Shown here piece by piece: positions 9,093 through 36,747 of a DNA stretch of 64,000 nt (within the stretch, counting starts at the first letter, position 1; the number at the start of each line of letters is the position of its first letter). The notes beneath the pieces are model-generated. The model made no database searches and had not been told where the DNA came from. It saw nothing but the letters and a program-made list of their open reading frames with translations. Source of the stretch: Leptospiraceae bacterium (GTDB lineage Bacteria; Spirochaetota; Leptospiria; Leptospirales; Leptonemataceae). Both the position numbers and the translations under genes were made by a program. The stretch is from positions 192,001 to 256,000 of the forward strand of contig JAVJNR010000003.1 in assembly GCA_040217195.1 (NCBI GenBank), read 5' to 3'.

Positions 9093-9782
9093 ATGTCATC
9101 GCAACTATTTCTGTACGCTTTCTTCGCACTGAGTGCGGCCCATATCATTGGAGAGCTATTGCAGGACCCTATCCGTAAACGGATTCGCATGAGTACCAAA
9201 CCATTTCTAATGCCAGCTCTGATCGCATACAGTCTCTTGCATACAGATGAGCCAAACTGGTGGATTGTTGGAGGATTGCTATTGGGATGGGTTGGCGATG
9301 TAGTTTTGATGTATCCGAAAGTTGCCATAATGTTTCTCATTGGCCTGGCCTCTTTTCTCGTAGGTCATGGTCTCTATATCTATGCCTTCCTGGAATCCAC
9401 TGGTTTTCTGCAGAGTATGCCGGTATGGTTTATGGCCCTTTCAGCTGTATTCGCACTGGCAGCTGCAGCAATATTTGCCTACTTTAAGCCACATCTAACA
9501 GGCGAAAATGCTGACAAAAAGATTCCGGTGGCGCTTTACTCGGCAATAATCATGGCCATGAGCTACACTTCTCTGGCCATCTGGCTGAATGGCTCTGGCT
9601 CTGGAGTTTTCTTTGTGGCTCTTCCTTTCATCGGATCTCTATTCTTTATTGTTTCCGATGTCATTCTGGCAAAGCTGCTCTTTATCAAACCATTCAAATT
9701 CGATAAGGCCATCAACATGACTACCTACCTGGCCGGTCAATTCTTCATCGCGCAGGCGTATCTGCCCTATCCGTTTGGCTGA
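9093..9782 (+). CDS. Lysoplasmalogenase (YhhN/TMEM86) family, copy 1
   Basis: TKPFLMP, GDVVL, SFLVGH, FIVSD, TYLAGQ motifs. Confidence 0.9.
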   Translation: MSSQLFLYAFFALSAAHIIGELLQDPIRKRIRMSTKPFLMPALIAYSLLHTDEPNWWIVGGLLLGWVGDVVLMYPKVAIMFLIGLASFLVGHGLYIYAFLESTGFLQSMPVWFMALSAVFALAAAAIFAYFKPHLTGENADKKIPVALYSAIIMAMSYTSLAIWLNGSGSGVFFVALPFIGSLFFIVSDVILAKLLFIKPFKFDKAINMTTYLAGQFFIAQAYLPYPFG

Positions 9783-9927
9783 TCCAGGAGTTGTGCTGGA
9801 ATTCTGGATTGATGGTCGGTAAAGAAAGAGCGGATTCAAACCGAAAAGTTACTGCCCCTTTCCAAATAAATTCCGGTGTAGATAGAACAGTAGTTGGCCT
9901 GCAGAATGCGTCATCCAATCTCATACC

Positions 9928-10617
9928 ATGTCATCCCAACTGTTTCTATATGTCTTTTTTGCTCTCAGTGCAATTCACGTAATAGGAGAGTTCCTGCAGG
10001 ACCCGCTTCGCAAGCGGATTCGCATAAGTACCAAGCCATTGCTTATGCCGGCTTTGATCGCCTATAACCTATTACATACCAGTGATCCAAACTGGTGGAT
10101 TGTGGGCGGATTGCTCCTTGGTTGGGTGGGCGATGTAGTTCTAATGTTTCCCAGGATTGCCATAATGTTTCTCATTGGCCTGGCATCCTTTCTGGTGGGT
10201 CATGCTCTATTCATCTATGCATTTTTAGAATCCACAGCGTATCTGCAAGGAATGCCAATCTGGTTCATGGGGCTGTCAGCCGTATTCGCTTTTGCCGCAG
10301 CCGCTTTCTTTACATACTTCAAACCACATCTTACAGGTGACAATGCAGATAAGAAGATTCCAGTGGCTCTCTATGCATCCATTATCGTGGCCATGAGTTA
10401 TACATCCCTGGCTATCTGGTTAAACGGATCCGGTTCGGGAATTTTCTTTGTAGCTCTGCCCTTCATAGGATCGCTATGCTTCATTGTATCCGATTTCCTG
10501 CTGGCCAATCAGCTTTTTATCAAGCCGTTTAAGTATGACCAGGCAATTATTATGCTAACCTATCTAGCAGCTCAGTATTCTATCGCACAGGGTTATCTGC
10601 CTTATCCATTTGGTTGA
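9928..10617 (+). CDS. Lysoplasmalogenase (YhhN/TMEM86) family, copy 2
   Basis: Same motifs; 229 aa and colinear with copy 1. Confidence 0.9.
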   Translation: MSSQLFLYVFFALSAIHVIGEFLQDPLRKRIRISTKPLLMPALIAYNLLHTSDPNWWIVGGLLLGWVGDVVLMFPRIAIMFLIGLASFLVGHALFIYAFLESTAYLQGMPIWFMGLSAVFAFAAAAFFTYFKPHLTGDNADKKIPVALYASIIVAMSYTSLAIWLNGSGSGIFFVALPFIGSLCFIVSDFLLANQLFIKPFKYDQAIIMLTYLAAQYSIAQGYLPYPFG

Positions 10618-20659: not shown

Positions 20660-21658
20660 ATGTCCAGGAATCAAATTCTTATCATCGCCCTGACAGGCAT
20701 TGTATTTCTAGCTGCCATTCTCTGTTTCTATCTGTTTCGTCCCTTAAGCCATGCTCCTTCGCCGGCCACCTTTTCCTGCGCCGAGCTGAATGAAGGCAGG
20801 TTTCAGGCCTTTAAACCAAACCCGAACTATATCTATGGAATCGCCCTGGCCTATAGCCAGCACATTGAAGAAACTGCATCCGGATTCGATCCTGATGAAC
20901 CGCCACCTATTTTTGAAAAGAACTCCAGAGCCCTGACCAGAAATACTGAAATCATTGCAATGCCCAAAAGACAGGATTTGATCCAGGCCATGGAGGACTT
21001 CGAACCAGGGCTGGGCAAGACTGTGGATCAGGATTTCGAAGATCTTCCCGTGCTTCTGGACTATGAAGTGGAGTTAGCTTTTGTTCTTCTGGAGGATTTT
21101 TCCGCATCGGATCTTCAGAGTGATGATTTTTCTCCTGCACTGGGCTTTTTTCTGGCCAACGATGTTTCGGCCCGTACCATCGCGGTGATGGGCGAAGGAC
21201 AGAAAAATCGATACGAATACTGGGGACTGTCCAAGAGCTTTCCAGGATTTCTTCCCGTTTCGGACAAATTGTGGATTCCCGACAATCCAGGTCCCACAAC
21301 TCTGCCCTGCATCACAATCGAGACCTATGTGAACGAGGAATTGCGACAGAGCACTTCCACGGAAGATATGATTTATACTCCGGCCGAGCTAATTCGTCAG
21401 ATTCAAAAGAATTATCCGGACCGAAAGTTAAGCAAAGGAGACCTGGTTCTTATGGGAACTCCCGGTGGCGTAGCTTTCCAGACTCCACGCTGGCTGGCCC
21501 GTCTGGGAACTCTTGTGGGCATGGACCGGTTTGCCAAATTGAAGGCAGTTCTTCGACGGGATCGTTCTCGATTTCTAGAAGTAGGCGATACCATGCGAAT
21601 CCAGGCCCGAGAATTTGCAACTGTAAGCAATGAAATTGCAGCACCCAACGGGGATTAA
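20660..21658 (+). CDS. Fumarylacetoacetate hydrolase family protein with N-terminal membrane anchor
   Basis: DYEVELA, ANDVSAR, SKSFPGFLP, GDLVLMGTPGGV; hydrophobic N-terminus. Confidence 0.85.
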   Translation: MSRNQILIIALTGIVFLAAILCFYLFRPLSHAPSPATFSCAELNEGRFQAFKPNPNYIYGIALAYSQHIEETASGFDPDEPPPIFEKNSRALTRNTEIIAMPKRQDLIQAMEDFEPGLGKTVDQDFEDLPVLLDYEVELAFVLLEDFSASDLQSDDFSPALGFFLANDVSARTIAVMGEGQKNRYEYWGLSKSFPGFLPVSDKLWIPDNPGPTTLPCITIETYVNEELRQSTSTEDMIYTPAELIRQIQKNYPDRKLSKGDLVLMGTPGGVAFQTPRWLARLGTLVGMDRFAKLKAVLRRDRSRFLEVGDTMRIQAREFATVSNEIAAPNGD

Positions 21659-21747: not shown

Positions 21748-22059
21748 ATGGGCTTGCGAACCCACCGTGATAAATACTACTTGCTGTTTTGTCTTTTGAT
21801 CCTTCTGGGACTCTACAGATATTATTTCCCGAATCACTCGGAAGAATCCCACATTCCACCTTCCGCAGAGTATAGCATAAACTTTCATAGAGAGGCAGAG
21901 TTCATTGTACCGCCAGGCCCTGCCCGATCGGTGAATGCCACGGGTCAGATGCGTGCACTATTAAGCGAAGAATTGAATCGCCAGGATTTGTACAATCGTT
22001 TCCCGGACAACAAATCTGCATCCGATTCCAGGAGTACGGAGTTTTTTGGATGCAATTAG
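21748..22059 (+). CDS. Small single-TM hypothetical protein, first gene of the vWA-tubulin operon
   Basis: YLLFCLLILLGLY TM segment; overlaps the next gene by 10 nt; TTGACA upstream at 21712. Confidence 0.5.
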   Translation: MGLRTHRDKYYLLFCLLILLGLYRYYFPNHSEESHIPPSAEYSINFHREAEFIVPPGPARSVNATGQMRALLSEELNRQDLYNRFPDNKSASDSRSTEFFGCN

Positions 22060-24137
22060 TCAGTTGCCGAATCTTTAACCGGCTAATCTTATTAAAGCTC
22101 GTTCCAGTTGTTCTACTGCTACTCTCCAGTGCAATTCTGGCCAAACCGGACAAATCTAGAAGTAAAGGTCATTTCGTATCGGTTGTGCTTGTTCTGGACA
22201 TTTCCGGCTCCATGTCTGTAAACGATCCTGATCGACTGAGCTGGGACGCAGCAAATCTAATGGCGAATCTTCTGAGCCAGGGGGATGAAATTGGCCTGGT
22301 GCTTTTTAATCATGAAGTAGTAAGCACTCTTGGTCCTCTGCGAATTGGCCAGGATAATATCAGTAGAGATACAATCAAAGAAAGGCTTTCCGGGCGATAC
22401 AATGGCGGTACGGATATTCTTGGTGCCGTAAACAAAGGCATGGATATGCTGGGAAATGTACAATCGTCGCCCAGACGAAAGAAGGCAATACTGGTTCTCA
22501 CGGACGGCGCAGATCAGAGCTCACTGGACTCCTATAGAGCTGCCCATCTAAGATCTCTGAACCAGGGAATTACGATTTTTCCTGTTGCAATGGGAACCGA
22601 GCCCAGCAAAGAAAAATTGCTGGCACTTACCGACGAATCAGAACTATTGCAGGCCAATCAGCCCCAGGAATTACCGGATACATTTTCTATTATCTACGCT
22701 CGCCTATTCGACTCCATGATTTCGCGACCGCAGGGCACTGGAACAGGCTTTGTTTTTCAGGCCCATCCGCTTACCGCTGAAATGAACCTCATCCTTTCGG
22801 ACGATGATCCAGGCAGCTTGAACTTTACCGTTTATGATCCAGCTGGAAAGGCCCTGTCGAGCAACGAGGCCAGACACGGAAAGAAGTTCATTTCGCTTCA
22901 GATCGTTTCACCCACTCCGGGAGAGTGGAAAGTTCAAACCACAAGAATCCCGGACAATATGAGTTTGCTCCAGATTGCAGACCTGAAGCTAGAAGTGAAA
23001 TGGGGAGATGTTAGCCCACTGAAGAAAACAATAACCGTGGACCAGGCCAGATTGCTTACAGAAAACGGCACTCGGATCCTGGACGAAGAGCGGTACTATC
23101 GAGGCACAAGGTTCGAACTGGTGGTGCGGGGCCCTGGTGGAGAGAAAACATATGAACTAAGAGACGATGGTCAGGGAGCGGATCGCCAGGCCAACGATCG
23201 GATTTTTGCAGGCACTGGAAAGATCGATGGAATTGGCCAGTACAGCTATTATGTAAGAGTTCACTTTCCTGTCTTTAAACCCACCTCCGAAAGGTACTTT
23301 CTGGCCCTCCAGGAGAAGGTCTGGTTCAGGCTAAAATGGCAAACCAATGCAGCCCCGGCGGTACAGCAGGGACAGATCCTGGGTCTGCCCATTCAAATAA
23401 CAGAAAACAAACCGGCCGATCCAGAGGGAGAAAACATCCATGTTCGACTACATCCAAAATCTGGGCCCGACTGGAACTCTATTGAGCTATTAAATACGGA
23501 ACTAAATGTTAAAGAACGTTCTCCGGGAACCGTGCGAATTCGTCCGGATTATTACCGCGGCATAGATCTTGGATTGTTTAGCGCAACACCCGGTACCTAC
23601 GAAGGCGAACTGGAGTTTTTCTATCCGGGTCAGGATAGCGTTCGCCTGCCAGTCAAATTCGAAGTAAGATCGGCCCCTTTTCTTGATAAATTGCTGGGAG
23701 CCCTTATATTCTGGTCTTGCATTGCGCTGGTGATCGCAATTCTAATGGGACTGCGAAAGGCTGTGTGGTTTCCAAGAAAAATGAGAATCTTCCTTTGGGA
23801 TGAACATGGACAGAGAAAGCGCAGCAGCGATATCCTGCCCCGAAGCAAGTGGCTCTATGGAAAAAGCAGCCTTCAAATTGGCTCAGCCACTCTGTTCTCC
23901 CGAGGACATAAAAGCACCAATCATGATCTATATTACGAGGAAGACGGTATCCGGCAGAGAGAGCCGGTAGGAAAGCACCAAATCATACTCACACCCGCCG
24001 GCGGTTATGTGGTGGTGAGCGATGGTTACTTGAGCTTTGATCAGGAAATGAATCTGGGAGATCAAATCGGCCGGACTTATCGGCGAAGCCCCCTATCCCC
24101 GGAAGAAGAAGTCAGAATAATAGAAAGCGAATTCTAA
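22050..24137 (+). CDS. Exported, C-terminally membrane-anchored vWA domain protein
   Basis: Signal peptide; MIDAS DISGS, GGTD, LTDG; beta-rich middle including LRDDGQGADRQANDRIFAG; TM LLGALIFWSCIALVIAILMGL; basic tail. Confidence 0.9.
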   Translation: MQLVSCRIFNRLILLKLVPVVLLLLSSAILAKPDKSRSKGHFVSVVLVLDISGSMSVNDPDRLSWDAANLMANLLSQGDEIGLVLFNHEVVSTLGPLRIGQDNISRDTIKERLSGRYNGGTDILGAVNKGMDMLGNVQSSPRRKKAILVLTDGADQSSLDSYRAAHLRSLNQGITIFPVAMGTEPSKEKLLALTDESELLQANQPQELPDTFSIIYARLFDSMISRPQGTGTGFVFQAHPLTAEMNLILSDDDPGSLNFTVYDPAGKALSSNEARHGKKFISLQIVSPTPGEWKVQTTRIPDNMSLLQIADLKLEVKWGDVSPLKKTITVDQARLLTENGTRILDEERYYRGTRFELVVRGPGGEKTYELRDDGQGADRQANDRIFAGTGKIDGIGQYSYYVRVHFPVFKPTSERYFLALQEKVWFRLKWQTNAAPAVQQGQILGLPIQITENKPADPEGENIHVRLHPKSGPDWNSIELLNTELNVKERSPGTVRIRPDYYRGIDLGLFSATPGTYEGELEFFYPGQDSVRLPVKFEVRSAPFLDKLLGALIFWSCIALVIAILMGLRKAVWFPRKMRIFLWDEHGQRKRSSDILPRSKWLYGKSSLQIGSATLFSRGHKSTNHDLYYEEDGIRQREPVGKHQIILTPAGGYVVVSDGYLSFDQEMNLGDQIGRTYRRSPLSPEEEVRIIESEF

Positions 24138-24214
24138 GAAGCTTTCCATTCAGGACCTTGCTCGCATGGAAACACTGGATGCAATAATTGGATTCGCATA
24201 ACATTGAGGAAGAA

Positions 24215-27200
24215 ATGGCAAAAGAAATCGAAAGTTTTACACCACATTTAGTACTGGGAATTGGAGGAACCGGAAGTCGAGTGCTGCAGCGACTTATGGA
24301 GCTCACCTCAGCGCAGAAAGACCGAGTCAAGGCACTGCAAAAAAACAGGCTTCTAAATTTTGTTGCTATTGATACGGACGTAAACGATCTTCAGAAGCTT
24401 GGATTGCCGCGGCAGAATCAAATTCTCATCTCTGAAGGTGTGAATATGCCGGTCTACGCTGGCACCCGAAAAAGAGAAGATGAGTTAAGACCACTGGATG
24501 AACGTACTTTTCGCTGGTTTCCTCCCAGAGATGAGGTGGGCACATCGTTTGAAACACATAACCTGGGAAACGGGGCTGGCCAAATTCGATTCTACTCCAG
24601 GATCGGATGGGAATATACATGCCAGAATATGAATCTGGAAAGCCAGTTTGAAAACCTGCTGGGTAGCCTGATCAGTATCGACGTGAACAAGACTGTTCTT
24701 TCCGAAAGTCCAACCATTATTGCAACCATAGTTGGATCCATTGCAGGAGGAACCGGCTCAGGGGTCTTCTTACAGGTCGCCGCCATGCTGAAAGATATCG
24801 CGGCCAGGAAATTGAAAAGACAGCTTCTGGTCAAAGGCTACTTCTTTACTGCTGATATCTATACGCGGGGAGGCCTACTGCCAGAAGAGCAGCATGATGA
24901 CATAAAGGCCAATACCTATGCCTGCCTGAAAGATCTAAATGCTTTTAATCGATTACTAACTCGCATCAATCGACCAATTCTGTTCGATGAAGGGGACCTG
25001 GATTTTATCTGGAACCCAAGGGATGGTCGCCGGGATCTGAGCACAATTATGTACCGTCCATACGATATGGTGTATATTGTAGATGCTACAAATAGCACCG
25101 GCACATTACCGGTGGGACCCGGCATAGAGTTTCGCGCCTATGAGTCCATGCTTGCTGATGCACTTTACTGCTCCATATTCACTCCAATTTCATCCAAAGC
25201 GCTGAGCATAGAGAACAATGAAATAATAAACAAGATTGCTGCAGAACAATCCGGAGATGACTTCCCCGGGTATGGAGCGGTAGGTGCTGCAAGAGTCGTA
25301 TTTCCGGTGGATGATGTTTCAGATTTCCTTAGCTACAAGTATTGTCAGAGTATTCTGAGTTCCCAGTGGGCACGACTGGATCGAAGCCATCAGGAAAACC
25401 TGGTGGAATTCAATCGAGCCCAGGACCAGGGACGGTATAACGTCAAGATGCCTGAAAGACATCAGGACTTTATTCGAGACTTTGAATCCGAAGTGGCCCG
25501 GGGCGATGAAGCGGATCCCTCAATCGTAGCCGCATCCAACCATTACAAATATCTCACAGGTACGGAGCATTCCGGAGGTATACCTCATGGCGCTGATCTA
25601 AAATCCGTTCTGGAGCAATCCGCATTTGTTCGCGCCCTGGACGAAGAAATAGAACATCGAATCCTGGGGCATTTCCATACGGACAGTCATAACGTAATTT
25701 CTGAAAAGGGATTCTCCAGAACCATGATTCGAGATTACAATACTGTGGGTATCCTGCAACAGGACCGAAATCATCAGGTAGAATATTTGCGAGGACTGTT
25801 GCACAACAATGATCGCCACCTAAATGCAATCAAGCAGACGATACGCGACCTTGAAGCCACCCTGGCCCGCCAAATAGTGAGAGACTGTCTAGATGATGAT
25901 GCCTCCGCGAGAACTTCTGAGCGAATGGATCAGCTCAAAGATTATCAGCTTATTCGATGGCTAACTCTCGACCCCACAAAGAAGGGGCATAACATATTCT
26001 TTATACGATACTTCCTTTCCAGAGAACTGGAAAGTCTGCGAGCGGCACTGGAATCCCTGAAGAAAGAACGACATTCCCTGGAAAGAAAGTTTCAACGAAA
26101 TTCTAGAGCCTTTGATGATCCATCGACCGAAGACATTGTAGAAACTCCACTCCAGTTGCTGGAACAGAACATGGCCGGCTCCGGCATCAATGGAGTGATG
26201 CAGAAATTTCATGATGTGGTTACTTTTCGAAATAACTTTGTTCATGGTATGGTTTCGGGTACCGGAGAATGGAGTCAGGATCTGGACACCTGGATGAAGG
26301 ATAGATTGCGTCTGGAGCTAGAAGCGTTTGCCGTTGATATAAAAATGCAGGTTTATGAAGCTCTGTTCAAGCGCCTGGGGTTTGATCAACTGGGAAGTCA
26401 GGGTGGATTGCTGGATGTAGTCCACAGGCTGGCAGATACAATCATTTCAATCAGCGAATTATTCGAACGAAATGTTGAAAACAAAAGACAACGAAATTTA
26501 CAGGGCGGTAAGCTTGCAGGCGCTGTTCTTGTACATTGTCAGCCAGAGTCCAAAGATTACATATGGAAATCTGTGGGCGGAGAATTGAGAAGTGCCAATT
26601 CCGTTCTCGTGGATACTTACCAGGGATTGATCAACTTCTGCGAGACTACCTGGAGAGATATTCAAAGCATTTCCGCACCCAGCCCGGAAGTTGAAAAGCA
26701 AAGGATTTCTTCTATCTATCAGAGATCTTTCCGATTGAATGCATATGACGAAACTGATCCGGGACCAGTATTTGAAAAGTTAATCCAGCCATCCAGGAAA
26801 TTTCTGGAGGCAGCCTTGCGAAAGAAATACAATGTATTGAGCGCCATGCTGGAAGAGGCAGAATATGTGAGGGGAGTTTCCTTTGCAGACACCGATGAGA
26901 AAATGCAGTACCTGGCCGAGCAACTGGGCATAGCGTTTTCCAATGCTGCACCGTTTACGAATGTGTTCAAGGATGCAACTCCCATAAATGTTATCGCATA
27001 CAATCATGGGCTAATTGATAGCGGAATGCATGAAATTCTGGAGAAGTTTGGTGGAGATCGCAGTGTTTCGCAGGGAGGAAGTATCGATGATCCCAATGTG
27101 GTCATCTTCTACCGTACAATGGTAGGCCAGAAGATGTCTGAATTCAGAAATGTATTGGAGTTCCGACGATACTATGTGGATTCAGTGATCAATCGACATA

Positions 27201-27739
27201 TCCATCGTGAATGGCCGGATCTCTTGCCAGAGCTTTCCGATGAAATTGAGCTGGAGCATTTTAAAACCTTCGCTTTCTGCGAAGCGGCCGGTATCATTCA
27301 ATGTGCAGATGCGGATCGCGGAGAATATCAGTATGATCTTGCATTCAGGGACCCGTCCCATCAGGAATGGCGGCCTCTGGGCTCAAGCTACCGTAATTCA
27401 CTCGTTGGTCTGAGGCACATGATTCGAAAGCACTCCGAATTTCGTAATGCTATCTCAGACCAGGAAAGCAAAGAACGATCCAGGTATGATCGCCGTTCCA
27501 GTTTTGACTTCGCAGATAAACTATTCCATCTAATGGATAGCTTTCAGTCCAGAGCCAGCAGCATCAAAGATGGTCTGGATGATAAGAGCATTACGCCGCA
27601 TATCCTGGAGAGACTGGCCGAGGCCTGTTCGGAAATTGTGGTTGAGATGGTTTCTGGCACTGAAGTCGAATTCCAGGAGGCCAGAAAGGGAGCCAGAGAG
27701 CGAAAACCTGGAAATGGATCTCAAGTAGTCGGACGATAG
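24215..27739 (+). CDS. FtsZ/tubulin-like GTPase (Tubulin_2 / FtsZl1 type) with long helical C-terminus
   Basis: GIGGTG, AIDTD, GAGQIR, GSIAGGTGSG signature, ANTYACLKDL; GAGGA RBS before ATG 24215. Confidence 0.9.
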   Translation: MAKEIESFTPHLVLGIGGTGSRVLQRLMELTSAQKDRVKALQKNRLLNFVAIDTDVNDLQKLGLPRQNQILISEGVNMPVYAGTRKREDELRPLDERTFRWFPPRDEVGTSFETHNLGNGAGQIRFYSRIGWEYTCQNMNLESQFENLLGSLISIDVNKTVLSESPTIIATIVGSIAGGTGSGVFLQVAAMLKDIAARKLKRQLLVKGYFFTADIYTRGGLLPEEQHDDIKANTYACLKDLNAFNRLLTRINRPILFDEGDLDFIWNPRDGRRDLSTIMYRPYDMVYIVDATNSTGTLPVGPGIEFRAYESMLADALYCSIFTPISSKALSIENNEIINKIAAEQSGDDFPGYGAVGAARVVFPVDDVSDFLSYKYCQSILSSQWARLDRSHQENLVEFNRAQDQGRYNVKMPERHQDFIRDFESEVARGDEADPSIVAASNHYKYLTGTEHSGGIPHGADLKSVLEQSAFVRALDEEIEHRILGHFHTDSHNVISEKGFSRTMIRDYNTVGILQQDRNHQVEYLRGLLHNNDRHLNAIKQTIRDLEATLARQIVRDCLDDDASARTSERMDQLKDYQLIRWLTLDPTKKGHNIFFIRYFLSRELESLRAALESLKKERHSLERKFQRNSRAFDDPSTEDIVETPLQLLEQNMAGSGINGVMQKFHDVVTFRNNFVHGMVSGTGEWSQDLDTWMKDRLRLELEAFAVDIKMQVYEALFKRLGFDQLGSQGGLLDVVHRLADTIISISELFERNVENKRQRNLQGGKLAGAVLVHCQPESKDYIWKSVGGELRSANSVLVDTYQGLINFCETTWRDIQSISAPSPEVEKQRISSIYQRSFRLNAYDETDPGPVFEKLIQPSRKFLEAALRKKYNVLSAMLEEAEYVRGVSFADTDEKMQYLAEQLGIAFSNAAPFTNVFKDATPINVIAYNHGLIDSGMHEILEKFGGDRSVSQGGSIDDPNVVIFYRTMVGQKMSEFRNVLEFRRYYVDSVINRHIHREWPDLLPELSDEIELEHFKTFAFCEAAGIIQCADADRGEYQYDLAFRDPSHQEWRPLGSSYRNSLVGLRHMIRKHSEFRNAISDQESKERSRYDRRSSFDFADKLFHLMDSFQSRASSIKDGLDDKSITPHILERLAEACSEIVVEMVSGTEVEFQEARKGARERKPGNGSQVVGR

Positions 27740-27740
27740 G

Positions 27741-30404
27741 ATGGCTTCCAAGGTTTCCAGCCTGGTACTTCAGATTGGCCATCAAATCCAGCGGTTGAAC
27801 GAAGACCTGCAGGATGAATTGTCAACCGAAGACCGAATTCGATTTCTGCGAGCAGAATTAAGGTCTTTGAATAAGGGGCAGACAATCCTGCGCCTGTCCG
27901 GTAATAGTGATTCCGGAGTTCATGAGGTGGACCCTGCAAACCAGGCTGGGATTTATCAGGAGCAACCGCTCTTAGATCCTATCTATACATGCCTACTGGA
28001 TGAGATTCAGGCATTGCTGCAATTCGAGCCAGGCGATCATATGAATCGTCAGGTCCGAATCATTGTGCATGGCTCATTAACGGCTGCAGAAGACCGTAGC
28101 TGTTTTCTGAAGATTCTGCAATACCTGGCAGTGGTTCTCAAGAGCTTTTCTGCAAATGTCATTCGTCTGGTTCCGGTCATTCCATTCGCCAGCCGAAACG
28201 ATGCACAATTTTTCGCAAACCTGAGAGCCCTGGATGAAAGGTTCCGGGAAATGGAGCAAATCTACAGGTATGGCTCTGCGACTCCACCGGAGCTCCATGG
28301 TAGCCATTATCCACCCTATTTAAAGAGAGTAATTCTGATCTCGGATGACCTGGGGGGTCAGATCATGAACTCTGATGAACAGTCTTCGCTCTTATTCTTA
28401 ACTCTGCGACTTCTATGCGAACCGGGTGGATTCGTAAACAGATATAGAATCTATAGAGATGATGATACCCAATCAGATAGTCTGGAGAAATGGCTTCAGG
28501 TGGACGATCTTCTGAGTCCTGTGGGTGAAGTAGTTGATCCCTGGTCCGGTCCATATAGCTCTATTGGTTTTATTCACTATGGCATAGATGTAAAAAGAAT
28601 TAATCGAGTGATGAAGCTCTACCTGTATCATCTACTTATTGAAAAGCTGGCCCAGCCCGAGCTCATAGAAGGAGAATACGTTTTTCAGAATGCGGACAAT
28701 GAACTAGAACAATTAATACTGCGCCAAATGCAGGGTCAGGTCCATCCGGGTAGCCTGGAAATCATGAACCAGGAGGAATGTAGCGAAGCCTGGAACGAGC
28801 TGGTCCGAATTCAGAGCGTTAGCAAAGAATCGAAAAAGCTTTCCCTGGACCAGCCTGCATTGAAAGAGCTTGCCCGAAGCCTGCGAAAAGCCGGCCAGAA
28901 TGAACAAAAAGGATCCACACAATCAGATGTTATTGCTGTAATCGATGACCTCCAATCCACACTGGACCGACAGCTACCAGACTATGAGGATCTGGGTGCC
29001 CAGTTCTCAGATCTTTATCGGCGTGTGGCCCGGATTGTAGATCAGAAGGCTGTGCATTTTGCCAGTCAGATCAAAAGAAGATTCAGCCTGGTTGTGGAAT
29101 CTATTGCAAATTATTCTGAAGTGAATGAATCCGATTCTACATTGCATCAGGCAAGGCAGCTTAGCGAATATTTCAAGGAAAGCAGTGAAAAATCCATTCT
29201 CTCTCGTTGGCGCGGTCTGTCTTATGTATTGCAAAGAGCTTACAGAGAGCTTGTGACCCATCGCCAGAACATTCATCATCTTAGACTGACTCGCAGCAGA
29301 CTGGCCCCGGTGGAACACCTGCAGGAATCCGAGAATGGATTTCGCAGTAAATTGCAGGAAATTCGAAAAAGAGCCCTGAAACTCGGAAATGCCAGGTTCA
29401 GCCTGCTAATACCAGCTCTTCTGGGAACAATACTTGGTCTGACTGGATTAATTATACATTCCTCCCCTTTCGCTCCAGTAAGCGTTAGACTACCTTTTCA
29501 TCTACTTCATACAGCCATTGATCTAATTCTTCCAGATTCCATGCGAAATGCCACATTCTTCGCAGGACAGGCATCCCTCACTCTACCTGGAGCAATCTTC
29601 TGGGGCATTTTCATAGGAGCTGGTTTTCTATCCGCATACCTGCTTCGTCGCCATCAGTCCAGCAAGGCAACCCATCTCCAGGAGGAAGTAAATGAAGCCC
29701 TGAATTCCTATCTACAATCTCTGAAGATTCGGCCGGACCAGATCTTAGAGTCTCAGGCCTATTTCCGAGAAGGAAGATTTCTGCAGGAATATGCCAACCT
29801 CATTCGCCGCACACTTTTTCATTTTCATTCCTATGATCATGCATCCGGACAGGTGGCTCGCAGAATTCGACATGAATTGTTAATTCGTGGAGCCAGGCTA
29901 GAAGGAAAGAAGCTTCGCTTTGATGCAAACCATTTGCGACAGACCACAATAGAGTCCGACATGGTGGATCGATTCGAAATCAGTCTGCTCAAATCCCGGG
30001 AACTGGAAAGAATGGCAGACCGAATTCTGGAAAGGGATTTAACCGGAGAACTTCTGGCCGCACTTCAGGTCTTTTCCTGCGAAGAAAACCAGGAAGATAT
30101 AATGGATCGCAAATTGGATGAGTTGCTGCTACGCGATCTACCGCTCCATGAAGTTGAACGGATAATTTCACAACATGTAGAAGATTCAGCTTCCGAGAGC
30201 CTAAAGCAGGCAGCCACAGGCAAGAGACCCTTCTGGGCTCTATCTCTGAATCCAGAAAACTACACTGGCGGCGCTTTTGTGCGCAAAACCTTTCAGGGGG
30301 ACCGCAATTTCGGTGAAATGTTTCATCTGTTCTATGTTCGGCGAGGATTCTCCCTGGAAGAACTGGAACGGACCATCCGCTCCGCAAGTCAGGAGGCGCT
30401 TTGA
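27741..30404 (+). CDS. Degenerate tubulin-like paralogue with coiled coils and two TM segments
   Basis: N-terminal blocks colinear with the upstream tubulin but the Gly-rich loops are lost; TM segments near aa 550-635. Confidence 0.65.
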   Translation: MASKVSSLVLQIGHQIQRLNEDLQDELSTEDRIRFLRAELRSLNKGQTILRLSGNSDSGVHEVDPANQAGIYQEQPLLDPIYTCLLDEIQALLQFEPGDHMNRQVRIIVHGSLTAAEDRSCFLKILQYLAVVLKSFSANVIRLVPVIPFASRNDAQFFANLRALDERFREMEQIYRYGSATPPELHGSHYPPYLKRVILISDDLGGQIMNSDEQSSLLFLTLRLLCEPGGFVNRYRIYRDDDTQSDSLEKWLQVDDLLSPVGEVVDPWSGPYSSIGFIHYGIDVKRINRVMKLYLYHLLIEKLAQPELIEGEYVFQNADNELEQLILRQMQGQVHPGSLEIMNQEECSEAWNELVRIQSVSKESKKLSLDQPALKELARSLRKAGQNEQKGSTQSDVIAVIDDLQSTLDRQLPDYEDLGAQFSDLYRRVARIVDQKAVHFASQIKRRFSLVVESIANYSEVNESDSTLHQARQLSEYFKESSEKSILSRWRGLSYVLQRAYRELVTHRQNIHHLRLTRSRLAPVEHLQESENGFRSKLQEIRKRALKLGNARFSLLIPALLGTILGLTGLIIHSSPFAPVSVRLPFHLLHTAIDLILPDSMRNATFFAGQASLTLPGAIFWGIFIGAGFLSAYLLRRHQSSKATHLQEEVNEALNSYLQSLKIRPDQILESQAYFREGRFLQEYANLIRRTLFHFHSYDHASGQVARRIRHELLIRGARLEGKKLRFDANHLRQTTIESDMVDRFEISLLKSRELERMADRILERDLTGELLAALQVFSCEENQEDIMDRKLDELLLRDLPLHEVERIISQHVEDSASESLKQAATGKRPFWALSLNPENYTGGAFVRKTFQGDRNFGEMFHLFYVRRGFSLEELERTIRSASQEAL

Positions 30405-33400
30405 TGGGTTTTCTGGACGGCATCCTTTCGCTTGCCTATTTCTTTTTTGTATTGTTTCTACTGATGCATGGTATTCAGAATCTCAAAGAGTGCTATGCCG
30501 CTCTTAAGAGATATCGCTCGGGCAAGAAAGTACAATATGAAAAATCCCTCCAGCACCTGGCTCCCGGTGCGGGCGCTGTATTTGCTGGAATCCTTACTTT
30601 CTTTATTCTCTCTGTACCTGCACTGATAGAAACATTGTTCTATGCAGACAGCAATTCCATTCTATTTCGCACGGCAACTGCTCTGGCCTTTGAATATGAA
30701 TTACTGGGAAGCATTTTCTCGGCTGCAGGCGCTCCGGCCACTCCCGATGCCGTAGCTCAGATCATTCTGGACATTATTCCTGTCCATTTCTGGCAGCTAA
30801 TTCTCTTTCTCATCGGATATTTCGCATATCGAATTCTAACCTCCCAATTCTCTCGCATGTTTCAAGAGCCATCCGCTTTGATGCGATCAAGGCTGCCCGT
30901 AGATTTTGAGAATTCAGATCCAGAAACTCCACCCGTACTTTCGCCCTATACTTCCTTTGTATCCGGATCCATTTTTTTCTTTATTGGTGCAGGTATGCTG
31001 CTATTCCCATCTGCAGAGATGCAGTATGAGATTATTAGCGGCCGCGACATGGGTGGCTTCCTCTCTGTAATTCACGATCTCCAGGCTTTCATTCTACTCA
31101 GCAGTCAGTCCAATCATCATGTATTTCAGAATTCACATATTGCCGATTTTTTGCCCTGCATTCTGGCGCTGGTAGGTATGGGTATTCTGGAATTCACCGC
31201 CAGAGGATTATCAGAAAAATCCCGGCCGCCCTATACCGGAAATCAATCTGGAATTCATCTGGCTTTTAAGCGAAATCAGTTCGATTTCCTGGAAGATTTG
31301 CAGAAGAAAATTGGTCAGGTGCAGCCGCTGTTCGAAAATAATCCAACGTCCGGCGGTCGTAGCCCGCGAATAGAAGAAATAGATAGGGGGGCGCTGAAAA
31401 GGACTGTAGCAGAAACTCATGAGGAGTATCGCTTTGAAACTCTGGAAACCGAAAATCCGTTCTGGAGCGATATTCTGGAAAGACTGAACGTTGATCGTCT
31501 GTACACAACTCAATGGGAAGTAATCCAGAAAACAGCCACCGGTCAGAAAGTAGTCCTTTCAATGGAACCTGGTTCGGGCAAAATGCTTTCTGTTTTTCTG
31601 TCTGCCATGTACCAGGTAGTGCAAAAATTTCAGTCCGTACTGATCCTGGTTCCAGATGATAGCATTGCCGATGAAATCAAAGCCAGGTATTATGCGAAAA
31701 TCCAGGATTTACACTGGATGCAGGGATTATCCTTGCAGATTCTTACAAGCGATGAGGACAGAAGAGACACCGGCCATGTAACTGCCCTGGCCATGCAGGA
31801 ACTGCCCAGCGAAAGGCAGCCAGACATTATTCTTGCAACTCCCGATAGGCTTCATGGACTATTGAAAACCAGAGCCAGAGCACGGGATTTTATTCAGAAT
31901 CTGGGATTTGTAGCCATTGTTGAGGGTTCTTTGCATGGACATGTTCAGTCTCTACATACAGCTATGGTGCTGCGAAGATTCTTCACCATGGTTCGTCTGG
32001 TATTTCGCGGCCGGTACGGCGCCCGCTGGATGGGCGAAGATGGATTTCCTGAACTGGGGGTTCTGGTTACTCTGGAAAACTGTTCCAACGCAGATGCTTT
32101 TGCATCATTTTTGACCGGCCTGGATTTTTTGCCGGCCAATGTAATTTCTGCCTCACAGGCCCCCGTTCGACCCAAGAACGTTTACACCATCAAAGTAGAT
32201 TCAAGAAAAACAGGACAAACTCCCGGCCCACTGGCCATTTTTGATGCAGCCATGCAAAATCAGCAAGTTCCTCTTTTACTGCTTGGGTACGGCGAAAGAC
32301 TGATTCTGGCAGATAAGATTCGAATCGCTAGATACATTGAACAAAATTCAGGACAGGCTCGTTCAGATGTTCTAAAATCAATGTTTCTTGAATCTGAGCT
32401 GGTGAGGGGCCGCGAAAATGAAGGCTTCCTGGAGAATTCCTGGCAGCTGCTGGAATCCAGAGTCGCTGTTGTCGACCCTACCCATGATCCCGGAAAGTCC
32501 ATGTCCTTAATATCATCTATGGGTCTTTTTGCTGCGGGAGAGGCACCTCTGATTCTAATACCAATATACCTGGAAATGGATCGCATTCGGGCCCGCAGAC
32601 TGATGTCAGATGCAGGTCTATGGTCCGGATCCGGTTCCAGTTCGCCGCAACTGATCATCCCTGAATTCGATTCCAGGACTCTGCCTATATTGAAGTCCCA
32701 TTTGCATTGCCTGTTTGAAGAAATGGATCGTAGTTTTCTAAAAGGATACTCCGAGCCAGATCTTTTATCTCTCTTTGGTGGAGGTTTGAATCAGCGAATG
32801 GCTGATTTGATCCATCTGAGCATCCAGGAAATGGTTGCGGCCTGGAAAATTCGACCTCAGGAAAATGAAGAGCATATATCCTACGAAGCTGTTTCCACCC
32901 TGGAGGATATATATGATTTTTCATTCGACACTGTATCGCAAAGATCAGCAGTAAATGTCACTGTATTAAATACAACTAAAGTCAAGCATCTGGAATCGTT
33001 TGACCTTGAGTTCAAATATCCACCAGGTTCGGTAGTGCTATTCGACGGTAAGCGACGTCGCTTGCTCCAGGCTTCAGAAAAAGAAAATGCGGAAAATTAC
33101 GCTACTGGTTCCTCTGCTGCCGTTATGCTGGGCGCCGAGCATGAGACCTTCTACTCCAGAACAAAAATTCAGCTACTGACCGATTTCTGGAAACATTATC
33201 AGCAGAACCAATCGGACTACCAGGTTGAAAGCAGGTTCGTAGCGGCCGGAGACAAGACCATTTCGGTGCAATTCATCCGTCCAGATGGGCCGGGGACGCC
33301 CCTATCTTCGGAAATAATGGACAGCCCCCGGAATTCGCAATGCCTGGAAGTGGAATGGAGTGCAGGCGAGCTGGAGTATCGAGATGCCATTACGGATCGC

Positions 33401-33961
33401 ATTATTAGCCGCACCGATGTGCGAACCGAGAGGTCCGAGTCTGCCGGAAAATTAATTCTTAGCCCGGATGAGATTCTACACGTACTGATCTCTTCTGATG
33501 AATTCGATTCTGACAGTCCTGCACCGGAACAAGAAAATTCCGACGAAGAAACAGAAAGCACCGGCTCGGAACAATCATCTGAACCGATGACTGTACCAAA
33601 CGAAGTCATCGATTTATTCGACCTGGAATTCAAGAAGGGAATCGCTCTTCTAGTTTCCAATCATGAAGATTTGCTTGAGACCAGGGTACAAATCGGTTCA
33701 GGAATCTTTCTAACTCTAATTCATAAGCCTGTGTTTAGCAGCAACTTGCTCTCAATCATTGAGTCCGATCTCTGCGGCGAGAATCTTCATGGAACGTCCA
33801 GAATACTCACAGGTCTTGCAGAAAACACCACACTGCTGGAACACTTCACTTTCCTGAAAAAGTTCAGAATACCATTTCAAACCAGGGAAGCCCCGGCTTC
33901 GAATGTGCCGCAACTACTGGACGAAAACTGGGAAGATATTGCTTCGGAGGAGCATTTATGA
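30404..33961 (+). CDS. Multi-pass membrane protein fused to a degenerate YprA/Hrq1-like SF2 helicase
   Basis: About 5 N-terminal TMs; RLYTTQ, PGSGKM, PDIILATPDRLH, VAIVEGS, AMVLRR, LKSHLHC; TGATG overlap with the upstream gene. Confidence 0.75.
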   Translation: MGFLDGILSLAYFFFVLFLLMHGIQNLKECYAALKRYRSGKKVQYEKSLQHLAPGAGAVFAGILTFFILSVPALIETLFYADSNSILFRTATALAFEYELLGSIFSAAGAPATPDAVAQIILDIIPVHFWQLILFLIGYFAYRILTSQFSRMFQEPSALMRSRLPVDFENSDPETPPVLSPYTSFVSGSIFFFIGAGMLLFPSAEMQYEIISGRDMGGFLSVIHDLQAFILLSSQSNHHVFQNSHIADFLPCILALVGMGILEFTARGLSEKSRPPYTGNQSGIHLAFKRNQFDFLEDLQKKIGQVQPLFENNPTSGGRSPRIEEIDRGALKRTVAETHEEYRFETLETENPFWSDILERLNVDRLYTTQWEVIQKTATGQKVVLSMEPGSGKMLSVFLSAMYQVVQKFQSVLILVPDDSIADEIKARYYAKIQDLHWMQGLSLQILTSDEDRRDTGHVTALAMQELPSERQPDIILATPDRLHGLLKTRARARDFIQNLGFVAIVEGSLHGHVQSLHTAMVLRRFFTMVRLVFRGRYGARWMGEDGFPELGVLVTLENCSNADAFASFLTGLDFLPANVISASQAPVRPKNVYTIKVDSRKTGQTPGPLAIFDAAMQNQQVPLLLLGYGERLILADKIRIARYIEQNSGQARSDVLKSMFLESELVRGRENEGFLENSWQLLESRVAVVDPTHDPGKSMSLISSMGLFAAGEAPLILIPIYLEMDRIRARRLMSDAGLWSGSGSSSPQLIIPEFDSRTLPILKSHLHCLFEEMDRSFLKGYSEPDLLSLFGGGLNQRMADLIHLSIQEMVAAWKIRPQENEEHISYEAVSTLEDIYDFSFDTVSQRSAVNVTVLNTTKVKHLESFDLEFKYPPGSVVLFDGKRRRLLQASEKENAENYATGSSAAVMLGAEHETFYSRTKIQLLTDFWKHYQQNQSDYQVESRFVAAGDKTISVQFIRPDGPGTPLSSEIMDSPRNSQCLEVEWSAGELEYRDAITDRIISRTDVRTERSESAGKLILSPDEILHVLISSDEFDSDSPAPEQENSDEETESTGSEQSSEPMTVPNEVIDLFDLEFKKGIALLVSNHEDLLETRVQIGSGIFLTLIHKPVFSSNLLSIIESDLCGENLHGTSRILTGLAENTTLLEHFTFLKKFRIPFQTREAPASNVPQLLDENWEDIASEEHL

Positions 33962-35007
33962 AACGTTCGGAAGCCTCCCATCCGGCCCATTTGCAGAGGG
34001 ACTCCAATGAAAGGTACAGAGCAGATCTTTCCAGGGATTTTGTAAATATCAAGATCCATCGCCCGGAAATAAAACGAAGATCCTCCCAGCCTGCGTTTCT
34101 GGACCATCCGCTGCTGCGATGGGCATTCAAGAAGGTTCTGACCACCGCGGAAAGCCAGATTTCTGTGGAGTACTGCTATCGTTGTGAAGTACTTCTCGAA
34201 GGCGACACTTCCAGACTGGAGCCGCCCCTGCTATGCGAACCATGCGGCCAGGAGGTGTTCAGTCACCATTCCACCGAGGATGGAATGCAACCCGGGGATT
34301 CTCGGTCTAAGAACCCTCGAATCAGACCCTCCCATGACTTTCTAAATCGGTATTCTATTATTGAAAGCACAGGTGTGGATCCAGTTCGAGCGTCTGGAGT
34401 TCGTCTGCCAGAGCAAGTGGGCTCGAATTCCTCCGAAGTTCCATTTTGTATCTTTACAGGGAAATTCATAGGAGAAGAAAGCTTTCTAGTAGGCCCATTT
34501 AAAGCGCCAGCCTCGGTGGCTCGAAGATTGCTCCGCGGCCAGATAGATGAACTGGATGAGATCGCAAATGGAATGATTCTTCCTTTTCTTTCGCTTTACA
34601 ATCTTCATCCAGGGCAGATGCAGCTGGAGATTCACTGGGGCAGCCGGATCAGTAAAAACGCAGCAAGCCATCCAAGGTATCAAAAATTCGCCTATGTTAT
34701 CAATCCAGGGCTTCGAATACTGAAAATCGAAATCGATCTGTCCGATGGAGCACCGAATTACTATGAATTCATGCTTGCTCTAGTATCTCTGATTGGATGT
34801 TTTTGCAATGATAAAGAAATTGATCGCTACGGGGATCCTTCCAGCAACGATTTATTGATCTATCTTGAAGCGGAGCTTGTTTTTGCATTCAGCGCCAACA
34901 CAAAGAGTATGGAGCGATACGCTAAACAATTCCTACCCAAACACAGGCGTAACCGAATTAGAGACACCTACATGGAAGCCATTCGCAGCCGAAGGCCTCG
35001 CTCCTGA
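33958..35007 (+). CDS. Hypothetical protein with CxxC...CxxC Zn-ribbon, last gene of the operon
   Basis: CYRC and CEPC pairs; ATGA overlap with the upstream gene. Confidence 0.7.
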   Translation: MKRSEASHPAHLQRDSNERYRADLSRDFVNIKIHRPEIKRRSSQPAFLDHPLLRWAFKKVLTTAESQISVEYCYRCEVLLEGDTSRLEPPLLCEPCGQEVFSHHSTEDGMQPGDSRSKNPRIRPSHDFLNRYSIIESTGVDPVRASGVRLPEQVGSNSSEVPFCIFTGKFIGEESFLVGPFKAPASVARRLLRGQIDELDEIANGMILPFLSLYNLHPGQMQLEIHWGSRISKNAASHPRYQKFAYVINPGLRILKIEIDLSDGAPNYYEFMLALVSLIGCFCNDKEIDRYGDPSSNDLLIYLEAELVFAFSANTKSMERYAKQFLPKHRRNRIRDTYMEAIRSRRPRS

Positions 35008-35201: not shown

Positions 35202-35954
35202 ATGCTACGAACCTGCACTGGATGCATTATGCGAGCCGTGGATAATAGAAGGAACGGCAACCTGCATTATGGCGCTTCGAGAGCAGGCTATATTGCTGGA
35301 TTGACCAGCACTATTCTGTTACTGTCTATCTTCACCGGAAACTGCTTTCTGCATCCCATAAGTGGTACCGGACCATCCCAGGAACTCTTTGGCCTTTCTG
35401 ATGAGCAGTCCAATGAAAAGCTTTTTGCAGCACTCCTGGCTAGCTTGGCCAACCTGGACGCCAGTTCTGCAACTCACATCACACTTTATAATGCAGGAAC
35501 CACCGATGGAGATATGGGAGGCCTGAGCGGTGCCAACGCCATTTGTAATGCGTCCTCCAACAAACCAGAAGGAACCACTGGAGTGGCCTTCCTATCCACA
35601 TCGAGCCAGGCTTTATTGTTACTCCCTGGTGTTCCATTGGACCTACCAGTTCAGGGACCCAACGGATTACCTCTTGCCACAGATTGGTTCGACCTCTTCG
35701 GTTTTGAACAGACAATTTTGAACACCCTGGGCGATGCAGAGGTTTTACCCTTTGCCTCCAATGAGTTTTACTCGGGCACTGCTCCAGATGGATTTCCGGA
35801 GCCTGGATATACCTGTGATGACTGGAACAGCTCTGACAGCCGTTCGTTCTTTGCCACAGTGGGAATTGGAGATGAAACTTCTGATTTCTGGATTTCCCAC
35901 ACGGATCCTCCCGGCTGTAATGCGATTCTCTATCTACTCTGTGCAGCCTGGTAA
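35202..35954 (+). CDS. DUF1554 (endostatin-like, Len-type) lipoprotein, copy 1 (start uncertain)
   Basis: GDMGGLSGANAIC, AFLST, DWFDLF, TCDDW, terminal LCAAW. Confidence 0.75.
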   Translation: MLRTCTGCIMRAVDNRRNGNLHYGASRAGYIAGLTSTILLLSIFTGNCFLHPISGTGPSQELFGLSDEQSNEKLFAALLASLANLDASSATHITLYNAGTTDGDMGGLSGANAICNASSNKPEGTTGVAFLSTSSQALLLLPGVPLDLPVQGPNGLPLATDWFDLFGFEQTILNTLGDAEVLPFASNEFYSGTAPDGFPEPGYTCDDWNSSDSRSFFATVGIGDETSDFWISHTDPPGCNAILYLLCAAW

Positions 35955-36045
35955 TTTCCAGGCGCGGATTTGCTGGGCGGACCGCCCGGAATATTTTATT
36001 GTTTTTTTTTATTGATATATTTCCCTACCATATCCATTTTTCTGT

Positions 36046-36747
36046 ATGCTCGATGGGAGAAATCTCCAAAAGCTGATTTCCCGGATCAGAAACCAGCTCA
36101 CTTGCCTCTGGATTCTCTTTCCCCTGATATTAACCACAGCCTGCGTTTTGCATCCGGCTACCGGCACCGAACCATCCAGGGAACTTTTTGGGCTGAATGA
36201 CTCAAGGCCGGAAGATGCTTTGTTGATCTCAGGCTTAATCATGGGACTGGATGCGGCGCCTGCTACCCCGCAAATCATGCTCTACGCTGCTGGCAGTATG
36301 GATGGTGGCATGGGAGGTATCCAGAATGCTAACGGTTTCTGCCAGAGCTCCCCCAGCCAGCCGCCAGGCACTATGAGCAAGGCATTCCTTTCCACCTCGG
36401 ACCAGGACTTGATCAGTTTGCCAGGGGTCCCTGCGGATCTGGCTGTACGGGGGCCGAACGGTTCGTTGATAGCTGATAACTGGTCTGATCTATTTGGAAC
36501 TGGCGAATCAATCGAGAATTCTATGTACGATGCAGGCGTATTGCCCTTCCCCTCAAGTACATTCTATACAGGAACCGATGTCAATGGACAATCCAGTAAC
36601 TTGAATACCTGCCTTGACTGGAACAGCCCATCCCTTCAAGATACCGGAGCAGTAGGCATTGCCAACCTGACTGCGGAGAATTGGATCAACGGAGGCGCGC
36701 CCATGGAATGCGCCTATTCCCATTCTATCCTGTGCGCAGCCTGGTAA
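36046..36747 (+). CDS. DUF1554 (endostatin-like, Len-type) lipoprotein, copy 2
   Basis: GGMGGIQNANGFC, AFLST, NWSDLF, TCLDW, LCAAW; lipobox LTTAC. Confidence 0.75.
   Translation: MLDGRNLQKLISRIRNQLTCLWILFPLILTTACVLHPATGTEPSRELFGLNDSRPEDALLISGLIMGLDAAPATPQIMLYAAGSMDGGMGGIQNANGFCQSSPSQPPGTMSKAFLSTSDQDLISLPGVPADLAVRGPNGSLIADNWSDLFGTGESIENSMYDAGVLPFPSSTFYTGTDVNGQSSNLNTCLDWNSPSLQDTGAVGIANLTAENWINGGAPMECAYSHSILCAAW

Follow-up and report, generated by a model that had tools for sequence, protein, structure and literature searches.

What kind of system is encoded by six tightly packed genes that stand in one spirochaete genome and are missing from the corresponding site of another? The question is raised by a locus of an uncultured Leptospiraceae bacterium (GenBank assembly GCA_040217195.1, contig JAVJNR010000003.1), which lies within a stretch of 64,000 nucleotides (contig positions 192,001 to 256,000, forward strand) referred to below as the window. 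A preliminary description of this DNA proposed here a membrane-associated operon for a vWA protein, a tubulin, a pseudo-tubulin, a pseudo-helicase and a Zn-ribbon protein. The genome of the window (G000) was compared with other genomes, including G001, G002 and G005, the last of which belongs to the same genus; scans with Pfam, NCBIfam and PADLOC-DB 2.0.0 were combined with BLASTP, phmmer/hmmsearch, hhalign, a PDB search, AlphaFold2 and hydropathy analysis. According to the data obtained the locus is probably a strongly diverged, spirochaete-specific vWA-FtsZl1 cassette of the B5/B12 subtype, the products of which would form a membrane complex acting as outlined below. Its classification as such a cassette appears well supported. 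We regard the operon as a real and coherent unit of accessory character, a variant of a cassette already catalogued, the function of which we can only infer. The six co-oriented open reading frames (ORFs) that had been proposed are all present, some of them with transmembrane (TM) segments:

21748..22059, + strand: g1, 103 aa, ORF with an N-terminal hydrophobic helix, no family
22050..24137, + strand: g2, 695 aa, predicted exported vWA protein with TM segments (Pfam VWA)
24215..27739, + strand: g3, 1174 aa from ATG, FtsZl1/Tubulin_2 GTPase without TM segments (Pfam Tubulin_2)
27741..30404, + strand: g4, 887 aa, genus-restricted protein with a predicted TM hairpin (hydropathy)
30404..33961, + strand: g5, 1185 aa, putative polytopic pseudo-helicase (Pfam DEAD, PDB YprA)
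33958..35007, + strand: g6, 349 aa, predicted cytoplasmic protein with zinc-ribbon-like CxxC pairs

Within the tubulin superfamily no branch is more diverged than the FtsZl1/Tubulin_2 proteins; to our knowledge none of these has been studied experimentally in fifteen years. The proposed link of g3 to this family is borne out by a match to Pfam PF13809 with E 3.2e-47 (161.9 bits against a cut-off of 27 bits), and matches to related tubulin-like proteins reach E 1.8e-39. The NTPase motifs, described earlier as intact, are so: the GTP loops T1 (GIGGTGS) and T4 (AGGTGSG) lie in invariant alignment columns, and every column invariant among 17 aligned relatives is kept. The alignment with relatives P0010-P0012 covers the full length of g3, which has a long C-terminal extension with conserved columns at H995, W1000 and P1001. 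FtsZ_C and Tubulin_C, in place of which the family is described as having a coiled coil and an alpha-helical domain, gave no match in Pfam. The best relatives found anywhere show about 31% identity, in the N-terminal third only; one relative belongs to an alphaproteobacterial metagenome-assembled genome and one to a 645-kb plasmid of Azospirillum ramasamyi, on which every neighbouring gene carries the annotation ‘hypothetical’. Within the phylum relatives with at most 27% identity occur in 5 other genomes of 300.

The gene upstream of g3 contributes the second characteristic component. The product of g2 matches Pfam VWA with E 2.6e-11, and its vWA domain (residues 45-197) has a complete metal-ion-dependent adhesion site (MIDAS), made of DISGS at 50-54 and the downstream GGTD and LTDGAD with their Thr and Asp. 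Hydropathy predicts a signal/TM segment at 12-30 and a TM segment at 548-566, after which come Arg/Lys residues and a tail about 130 aa long; the ectodomain is beta-rich. Because a signal-like helix is combined with TM 548-566 and its trailing Arg/Lys, the vWA domain should reside on the outer side of the inner membrane, with the tail in the cytoplasm. FtsZl1-vWA operons are characterised by an adjacent gene for a vWA protein with intact MIDAS (DxSxS), often secreted or membrane-bound, and g2 is such a gene. Like the FtsZl1 vWA operons outlined by Makarova & Koonin 2010 (PMC2875224), the locus combines a Tubulin_2 N-domain, a GGTGSG-type loop, a long extension, a MIDAS vWA neighbour, membrane partners and patchy occurrence; unlike the other FtsZl1 subtypes outlined in that source, it has no protein kinase, diverged GTPase, OmpA or MotA/ExbB partners.

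A definite order of partners was seen in 72 metagenomic loci around g3 relatives, collected with a 4-row alignment as a query and grouped into 24 clusters, 12 of them with at least 5.9 kb of downstream sequence. In 11 of these 12 clusters a large polytopic protein of 762-1748 aa, designated Y, is encoded two genes downstream of the tubulin-like gene; TM helices mark its N-terminus, and most forms end with a Cys ribbon and HELTHxWQ in the C-terminal part. A protein with the profile designated X (650-720 aa, TM hairpin at about 70% of the length) is encoded between them in 8 clusters of 12, and a vWA-profile protein upstream of the tubulin-like gene in 8 as well. This order coincides with that of the vWA-FtsZl1-B5-B12 rows BACCAP_04121-04124 and RUMLAC_01526-01529 in Additional file 5 of Makarova & Koonin 2010 (PMC2875224), and the protein sizes agree as well, with about 700-860 aa for vWA, 1140-1180 for FtsZl1, 660-890 for the third protein and 1200-1430 for the membrane protein. 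The operon shares with this cassette type an exported anchored vWA protein, intact GTP loops, a third protein with a predicted hairpin and an N-terminally polytopic fourth one. It differs from it by the extra genes g1 and g6 and by partners that, g3 and the vWA domain apart, are confined to one spirochaete genus. The locus adds a spirochaete member to a cassette previously tabulated for firmicutes. Co-conservation, on which the initial proposal depended, is found at two levels, as an orthologous operon within the genus (G005) and as the cassette type in other lineages. It had also been stated that no functional description of this combination is known; this holds, as the literature search revealed no experimental study of the cassette, while the combination itself has its precedent in the Additional file 5 just cited. 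A phylogeny of 2023, in its treatment of Tubulin_2 proteins, leaves them aside as uncharacterised.

Several of the metagenomic loci have features of their own. In a marine metagenome X and Y are seemingly fused within one ORF of 1748 aa (L032:13484-18730), a Rosetta-stone hint that they bind each other. Directly upstream of the vWA gene in a canonical cassette, L031:4019-7366 encodes an FtsH-like protein of 1115 aa with two AAA+ domains and Peptidase_M41. A Tn3-family transposase (DUF4158 and DDE_Tnp_Tn3; L033:4151-6421) follows a shortened tubulin-like gene (752 aa) in the same orientation at a distance of about 1.1 kb, an opposite-strand ORF of 207 aa lying in between, and this cassette may be disrupted.

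The fourth position of the cassette is taken by g5. Five TM helices are predicted by hydropathy within residues 4-265, and since Lys/Arg-rich loops follow helices 1, 3 and 5, the protein beyond residue 266 should be cytoplasmic. This part contains a RecA1 domain (residues about 346-531; Pfam DEAD with E 3.3e-9 at 370-506) followed by about 650 aa of unrecognised fold. The YprA likeness suggested at first sight was confirmed, as the nearest solved relative is B. subtilis YprA (PDB 6znp, E 5.1e-5), with residues 49-212 of which the RecA1 lobe of g5 aligns. An MrfA/YprA-type helicase with DEAD, Helicase_C, WHD_HRQ1 and MZB domains is encoded in the same genome (G000:C2, locus L123:890-3208), and BLASTP relates g5 to it by the RecA1 lobe only (E 1e-8, 24% identity over 232 aa); hhalign of g5 with a RecA1 alignment of seven superfamily 2 (SF2) helicases of this genome gave 96.4% and E 1.4e-9. 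Unlike SF2 helicases of the MrfA/YprA type, g5 has its five N-terminal TM helices, no Helicase_C, winged-helix or MZB domain detectable by Pfam, and altered motifs. Motif I reads GSGKM (ASGKT in YprA) and motif II reads VEGS (DELH in YprA), so that Thr is changed to Met and Asp to Val, while Lys of the P-loop and Glu of motif II are retained; both motifs are identical in the G005 orthologue. Such motifs are as expected for the putatively inactive helicase that had been supposed. A second RecA lobe was revealed neither by Pfam nor by hhalign with the RecA2 alignment of own-genome helicases (E 0.74), although a very diverged one may be present. The designation of g5 as an MrfA/YprA-like pseudo-helicase is supported by these properties.

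Profiles were required to connect the operon with the metagenomic proteins, for phmmer comparison of g1, g2, g4, g5 and g6 with 2200 ORFs of the 72 loci gave nothing at E ≤ 0.01. The vWA profile built from these loci matches g2, signal peptide and MIDAS included, with E 4.9e-6. The iterated Y profile matches residues 346-528 of g5 (hmmsearch E 1.6e-4 to 3e-3), and hhalign of g5 with ten Y proteins gave 67% and E 5.1e-5 over 225 columns. Y in turn matches the RecA1 alignment of the seven helicases (93-94%, E 1.4e-7 to 2.5e-7) and at the P-loop position has no Gly-Lys at all. Because both Y and g5 show profile matches to the SF2 RecA1 lobe, the Y family can be considered a dead helicase, and g5 is probably its less decayed relative. 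The large polytopic partner family thereby receives evidence, at the level of sequence, of descent from an SF2 helicase, with g5 as a bridge to MrfA/YprA. The word ‘helicase’ occurs neither in the main text nor in the supplements of Makarova & Koonin 2010 (PMC2875224).

The third position belongs to g4, which by its place in the order and its predicted topology is the counterpart of the B5-like TM-hairpin protein X. Two TM segments (554-572 and 612-630, that is at 62-71% of the length) with positive charges on the cytoplasmic side form a predicted hairpin between a big N-terminal and a C-terminal part, both cytoplasmic. No family was recognised in g4, and Pfam gave no match even at E 5. A word-indexed homologue search retrieved 2 proteins for g4, as it did for g5; a full HMMER search of 1.84 billion representatives retrieved 5 matches for g4, three of them to itself or to fragments from the genus. 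The other two, leucine-rich-repeat/immunoglobulin repeat proteins, were rejected as spurious.

The preliminary description took g4 for an inactive tubulin paralogue, and by eye its N-terminus can be matched to g3 (SLVLQIGHQIQRL to HLVLGIGGTGSRVL and RIIVHGSLTAAEDRSCFLKIL to ATIVGSIAGGTGSGVFLQVA). Alignment methods did not reproduce this: BLASTP of g3 against g4 gave nothing significant, nor did full-length hhalign. The best local match of the tubulin N-domain profile in g4 is the S4-T4-H4 segment, and it is weak (hmmsearch score -0.6, equalled by 25 of 1000 shuffles). The hhalign match of residues 1-330 with tubulin is weak too, with E 0.06 and a score of 21.0, while the highest of 40 column shuffles scored 19.8. 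Among the 30 neighbours of g4 in the protein-language-model Atlas there are 4 clusters with Tubulin_2 in 17% of members, and the X family gave E 0.37 with the tubulin profile, B5-like proteins being not detectably tubulin-like. The chances that g4 is of tubulin-like origin appear roughly even.

Based on these properties the favoured mechanism may be drawn as follows. The vWA ectodomain of g2 would bind a ligand on the outer side of the inner membrane. At the cytoplasmic face the g2 tail together with g4 and g5 would constitute a platform on which GTP-bound g3 assembles. In this complex g5 would serve as a scaffold, not as a motor; the nucleic-acid sensor also considered in the preliminary description would be another conceivable role. 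The output may be local remodelling of the membrane or envelope, or some partner activity may be controlled. For canonical cassettes such activity might be that of the zincin-type domain which ends the helicase-derived protein; this domain is lacking here, and the next gene encodes a zinc-ribbon protein of its own, g6. The distribution of domains agrees with the topology suggested before: by the positive-inside rule the vWA domain is predicted outside and the soluble domains of the tubulin-like protein, g4 and g5 inside. The expectation of four products with TM segments was justified for g2, g4 and g5 by hydropathy, while the hydrophobic stretch of g1 (YYLLFCLLILLGLYRYYF), discernible as it is, falls under the threshold. 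The N-terminal helix of g1 is nevertheless a probable membrane anchor with its N-terminus inside; Pfam, NCBIfam and PADLOC gave no match for this protein.

A number of points weigh against the cassette complex so drawn. The correspondence of X to B5 and of Y to B12 was derived from gene order, sizes and annotation text, not from sequence. X and g4 have no detectable sequence similarity (hhalign E 0.44; no hmmsearch match at E ≤ 10), so that their equivalence is one of position and topology. Outside RecA1 the N- and C-terminal parts of g5 gave nothing with Y (E 0.1-0.15 for the C-terminal 656 aa), and g5 is closer to ordinary SF2 helicases than to Y, as the E-values 1.4e-9 and 5.1e-5 cited above indicate. 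It has no CxxC and no HExxH, unlike Y, and compared with the canonical fourth protein it is without both Zn finger and zincin HExxH and keeps a DEAD domain detectable by Pfam. AlphaFold2 models of g4 (4-row alignment) and g5 (12 rows, including Y-family ones) had predicted local distance difference test values (pLDDT) of 34.9 and 37.5, too poor for a fold search. Since GSGK and the motif II Glu survive, nucleotide binding by g5 is possible, and since g5 is nearer to SF2 proteins with only RecA1 in common with Y, so is independent recruitment of a helicase.

In its strongest form the latter idea makes g5 an independently recruited, nucleotide-binding MrfA/YprA helicase of the membrane; the operon would serve uptake, export or anchoring of nucleic acid, and the tubulin-like protein would be a segregation-type motor like that of TubZ systems. 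Proximity to canonical SF2 RecA1 and to the own-genome MrfA-like helicase, conservation of the P-loop Lys and motif II Glu and the zinc ribbon in g6 speak for it, but RecA2 is undetectable by Pfam and hhalign, motifs I and II carry the two substitutions, MZB and winged-helix domains are missing, and g6 does not replace MZB. Moreover, the position and the N-terminal polytopic architecture of g5 are those of the motif-less Y family, and none of the six genes of the operon matched a DNA-binding family. This makes the membrane helicase quite improbable, and parallel recruitment of g5 is less likely than its relationship to Y. A bolder version of the cassette reading takes g5 for a surviving intermediate in the origin of B12 proteins from an MrfA/YprA-type helicase and the cassette for a device of outside-in signalling resembling the integrin-cytoskeleton connection. 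The signal of a ligand bound by vWA would pass through the single-pass and hairpin partners to GTP-dependent assembly of the tubulin-like protein on the scaffold, which maybe still binds nucleotide and integrates an intracellular signal. As a whole, this version is unlikely.

Any mechanism of this kind presumes that the genes work together. The junctions from g1 to g6 are those read before: g1 and g2 overlap by 10 nt, g2 and g3 are 77 nt apart, g3 and g4 are 1 nt apart, and the last two junctions read TGATG and ATGA. The 77-nt gap between g2 and g3 shrinks to 50 nt if g3 starts from the alternative TTG at 24188, where the reading frame is open. Base composition of the operon is that of the remaining window. 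Two metatranscriptome runs of a sample containing this DNA gave no contig that matched the locus, a result that tells neither for nor against expression. In G005 all six genes recur in unchanged order, and the genes on either side are the same as well:

20660-21658: fumarylacetoacetate-hydrolase gene, upstream flank of the operon
35202-36747: two tandem DUF1554-like genes, downstream flank of the operon

Amino acid identity to the G005 orthologues is 82.5, 88.9, 97.0, 88.1, 77.8 and 71.0% for g1 to g6, respectively, and the ratio of nonsynonymous to synonymous divergence (dN/dS) is 0.095, 0.036, 0.007, 0.032, 0.061 and 0.084, with saturated dS (1.1-3.2). Identity of 71-97% at dN/dS of 0.007-0.095 means that all six are real coding genes under purifying selection. 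With dN/dS of 0.007 g3 is the most constrained gene of the region, and its 97.0% identity exceeds that of each of five flanking genes compared (59-91%), which fits a protein with many interfaces. The six genes might be chance neighbours that do not work together, and promoter and terminator scans of the operon, which remained at the chance level, would allow it; but at four of the five junctions the genes overlap or are only 1 nt apart, order and content persist in G005 despite saturated synonymous divergence, and the genes are found together or missing together, with the same order recurring in distant lineages. Mere chance is therefore hardly credible. The fastest-evolving genes of the region are the two DUF1554-like ones, with 67.8 and 59.4% identity to G005.

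Within the genus the operon is not universal. Among 61 related genomes g4 was found in 3, namely G000, G005 and, as fragments, G001, and homologues of both g4 and g5 are confined to the genus. In G002, which is 94% complete, the flanking genes are about 930 bp apart with a single DUF1554-like gene between them, and the operon is missing. The empty syntenic site makes the operon a 13-kb presence/absence polymorphism, and such variation within a genus implies that it is dispensable.

Accessory and patchy occurrence makes a defence role possible, and such a role had been considered at the outset. YprA-like helicases are known from defence systems. As an anti-phage or conflict system the operon would sense an invader by vWA or the helicase remnant, and the tubulin-like assembly would trigger a membrane-directed response leading to abortive infection or exclusion. 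The presence of g4 in few genomes, the empty G002 site and the phyletic patchiness of the cassette type, including its location on the Azospirillum plasmid, are in line with this. So is the literature: Kaur, Burroughs, Iyer and Aravind (2020 eLife 9:e52696, PMC7159879) interpret as conflict systems other neighbourhoods of tubulin, vWA and HSP70 centred on GAP1-N2 GTPases, described there for firmicutes and actinobacteria, in which, as here, extended tubulin-domain proteins are linked to a membrane protein with extracellular vWA. Unlike the systems as presented in that paper, neither the six proteins nor the products of the flanking genes contain a GTPase (GAP1-N2), FNIII or HSP70 family. PADLOC recognised none of the 6 operon proteins and none of 14 cassette proteins (L038, L047, L072), and the expectation of a defence locus thus found no confirmation. 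The 64-kb window has metabolic and regulatory genes only, without mobile-element or defence genes; strong purifying selection acts on all six genes, none of which behaves as a fast-evolving sensor, and the helicase motifs of g5 are spoiled. Taken together, a conflict system appears unlikely, and the membrane cassette remains the reading we prefer. The locus sharpens several questions, as to the side of the membrane on which each domain lies, the proteins that are pseudo-enzymes and the gene that is the constrained hub, rather than reveals the function itself.

The last gene, g6, is lineage-specific. Its CYRC...CEPC motif has both pairs kept in the G005 orthologue, the C-terminal domain is conserved with an unrecognised fold, and Pfam and PDB gave no match. 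Several candidate origins were rejected. As a split-off C-terminus of Y it matches at one Cys pair alone (E 0.076) and has no HExxH; as a split-off MZB domain it gave E of at least 1.2 with the own-genome MrfA/YprA homologue. Matches to fungal HNH_2 clusters in the Atlas reached 0.87, under the level of 0.9 taken for a lead; neither G000 nor G005 has a match to the Pfam HNH_2 model, and hhalign of g6 with HNH_2 proteins aligned from related genomes resulted in E 0.28.

The genome has a second, different Tubulin_2 gene (G000:C5:311922-315749, or L004:11922-15749; 1275 aa), in which an insertion divides the Pfam match in two. This split-match paralogue, not the g3 type, is the one widespread in the family: ORFs of about 1275-1294 aa were found in ten genomes of 41 searched, and truncated ORFs in G003 and G012. 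A contiguous Tubulin_2 match of G012 was dismissed as a homologue of the operon, as it lies on a 3.7-kb contig and is unlike any of the six proteins. Upstream of the second Tubulin_2 gene there are genes for a 300-aa protein without family and a patatin-like phospholipase. A relative of g3 with 25% identity (E 1e-28, hit H7) was also met in MT836542.1, an unannotated faecal record of 9.8 kb labelled ‘Bacteriophage sp.’. Elsewhere in the window, tandem YhhN-family genes for 229 aa each occupy positions 9093-10617, and an adenylate/guanylate cyclase domain fused to a 7TMR-DISM sensor is encoded at 52904-54949.

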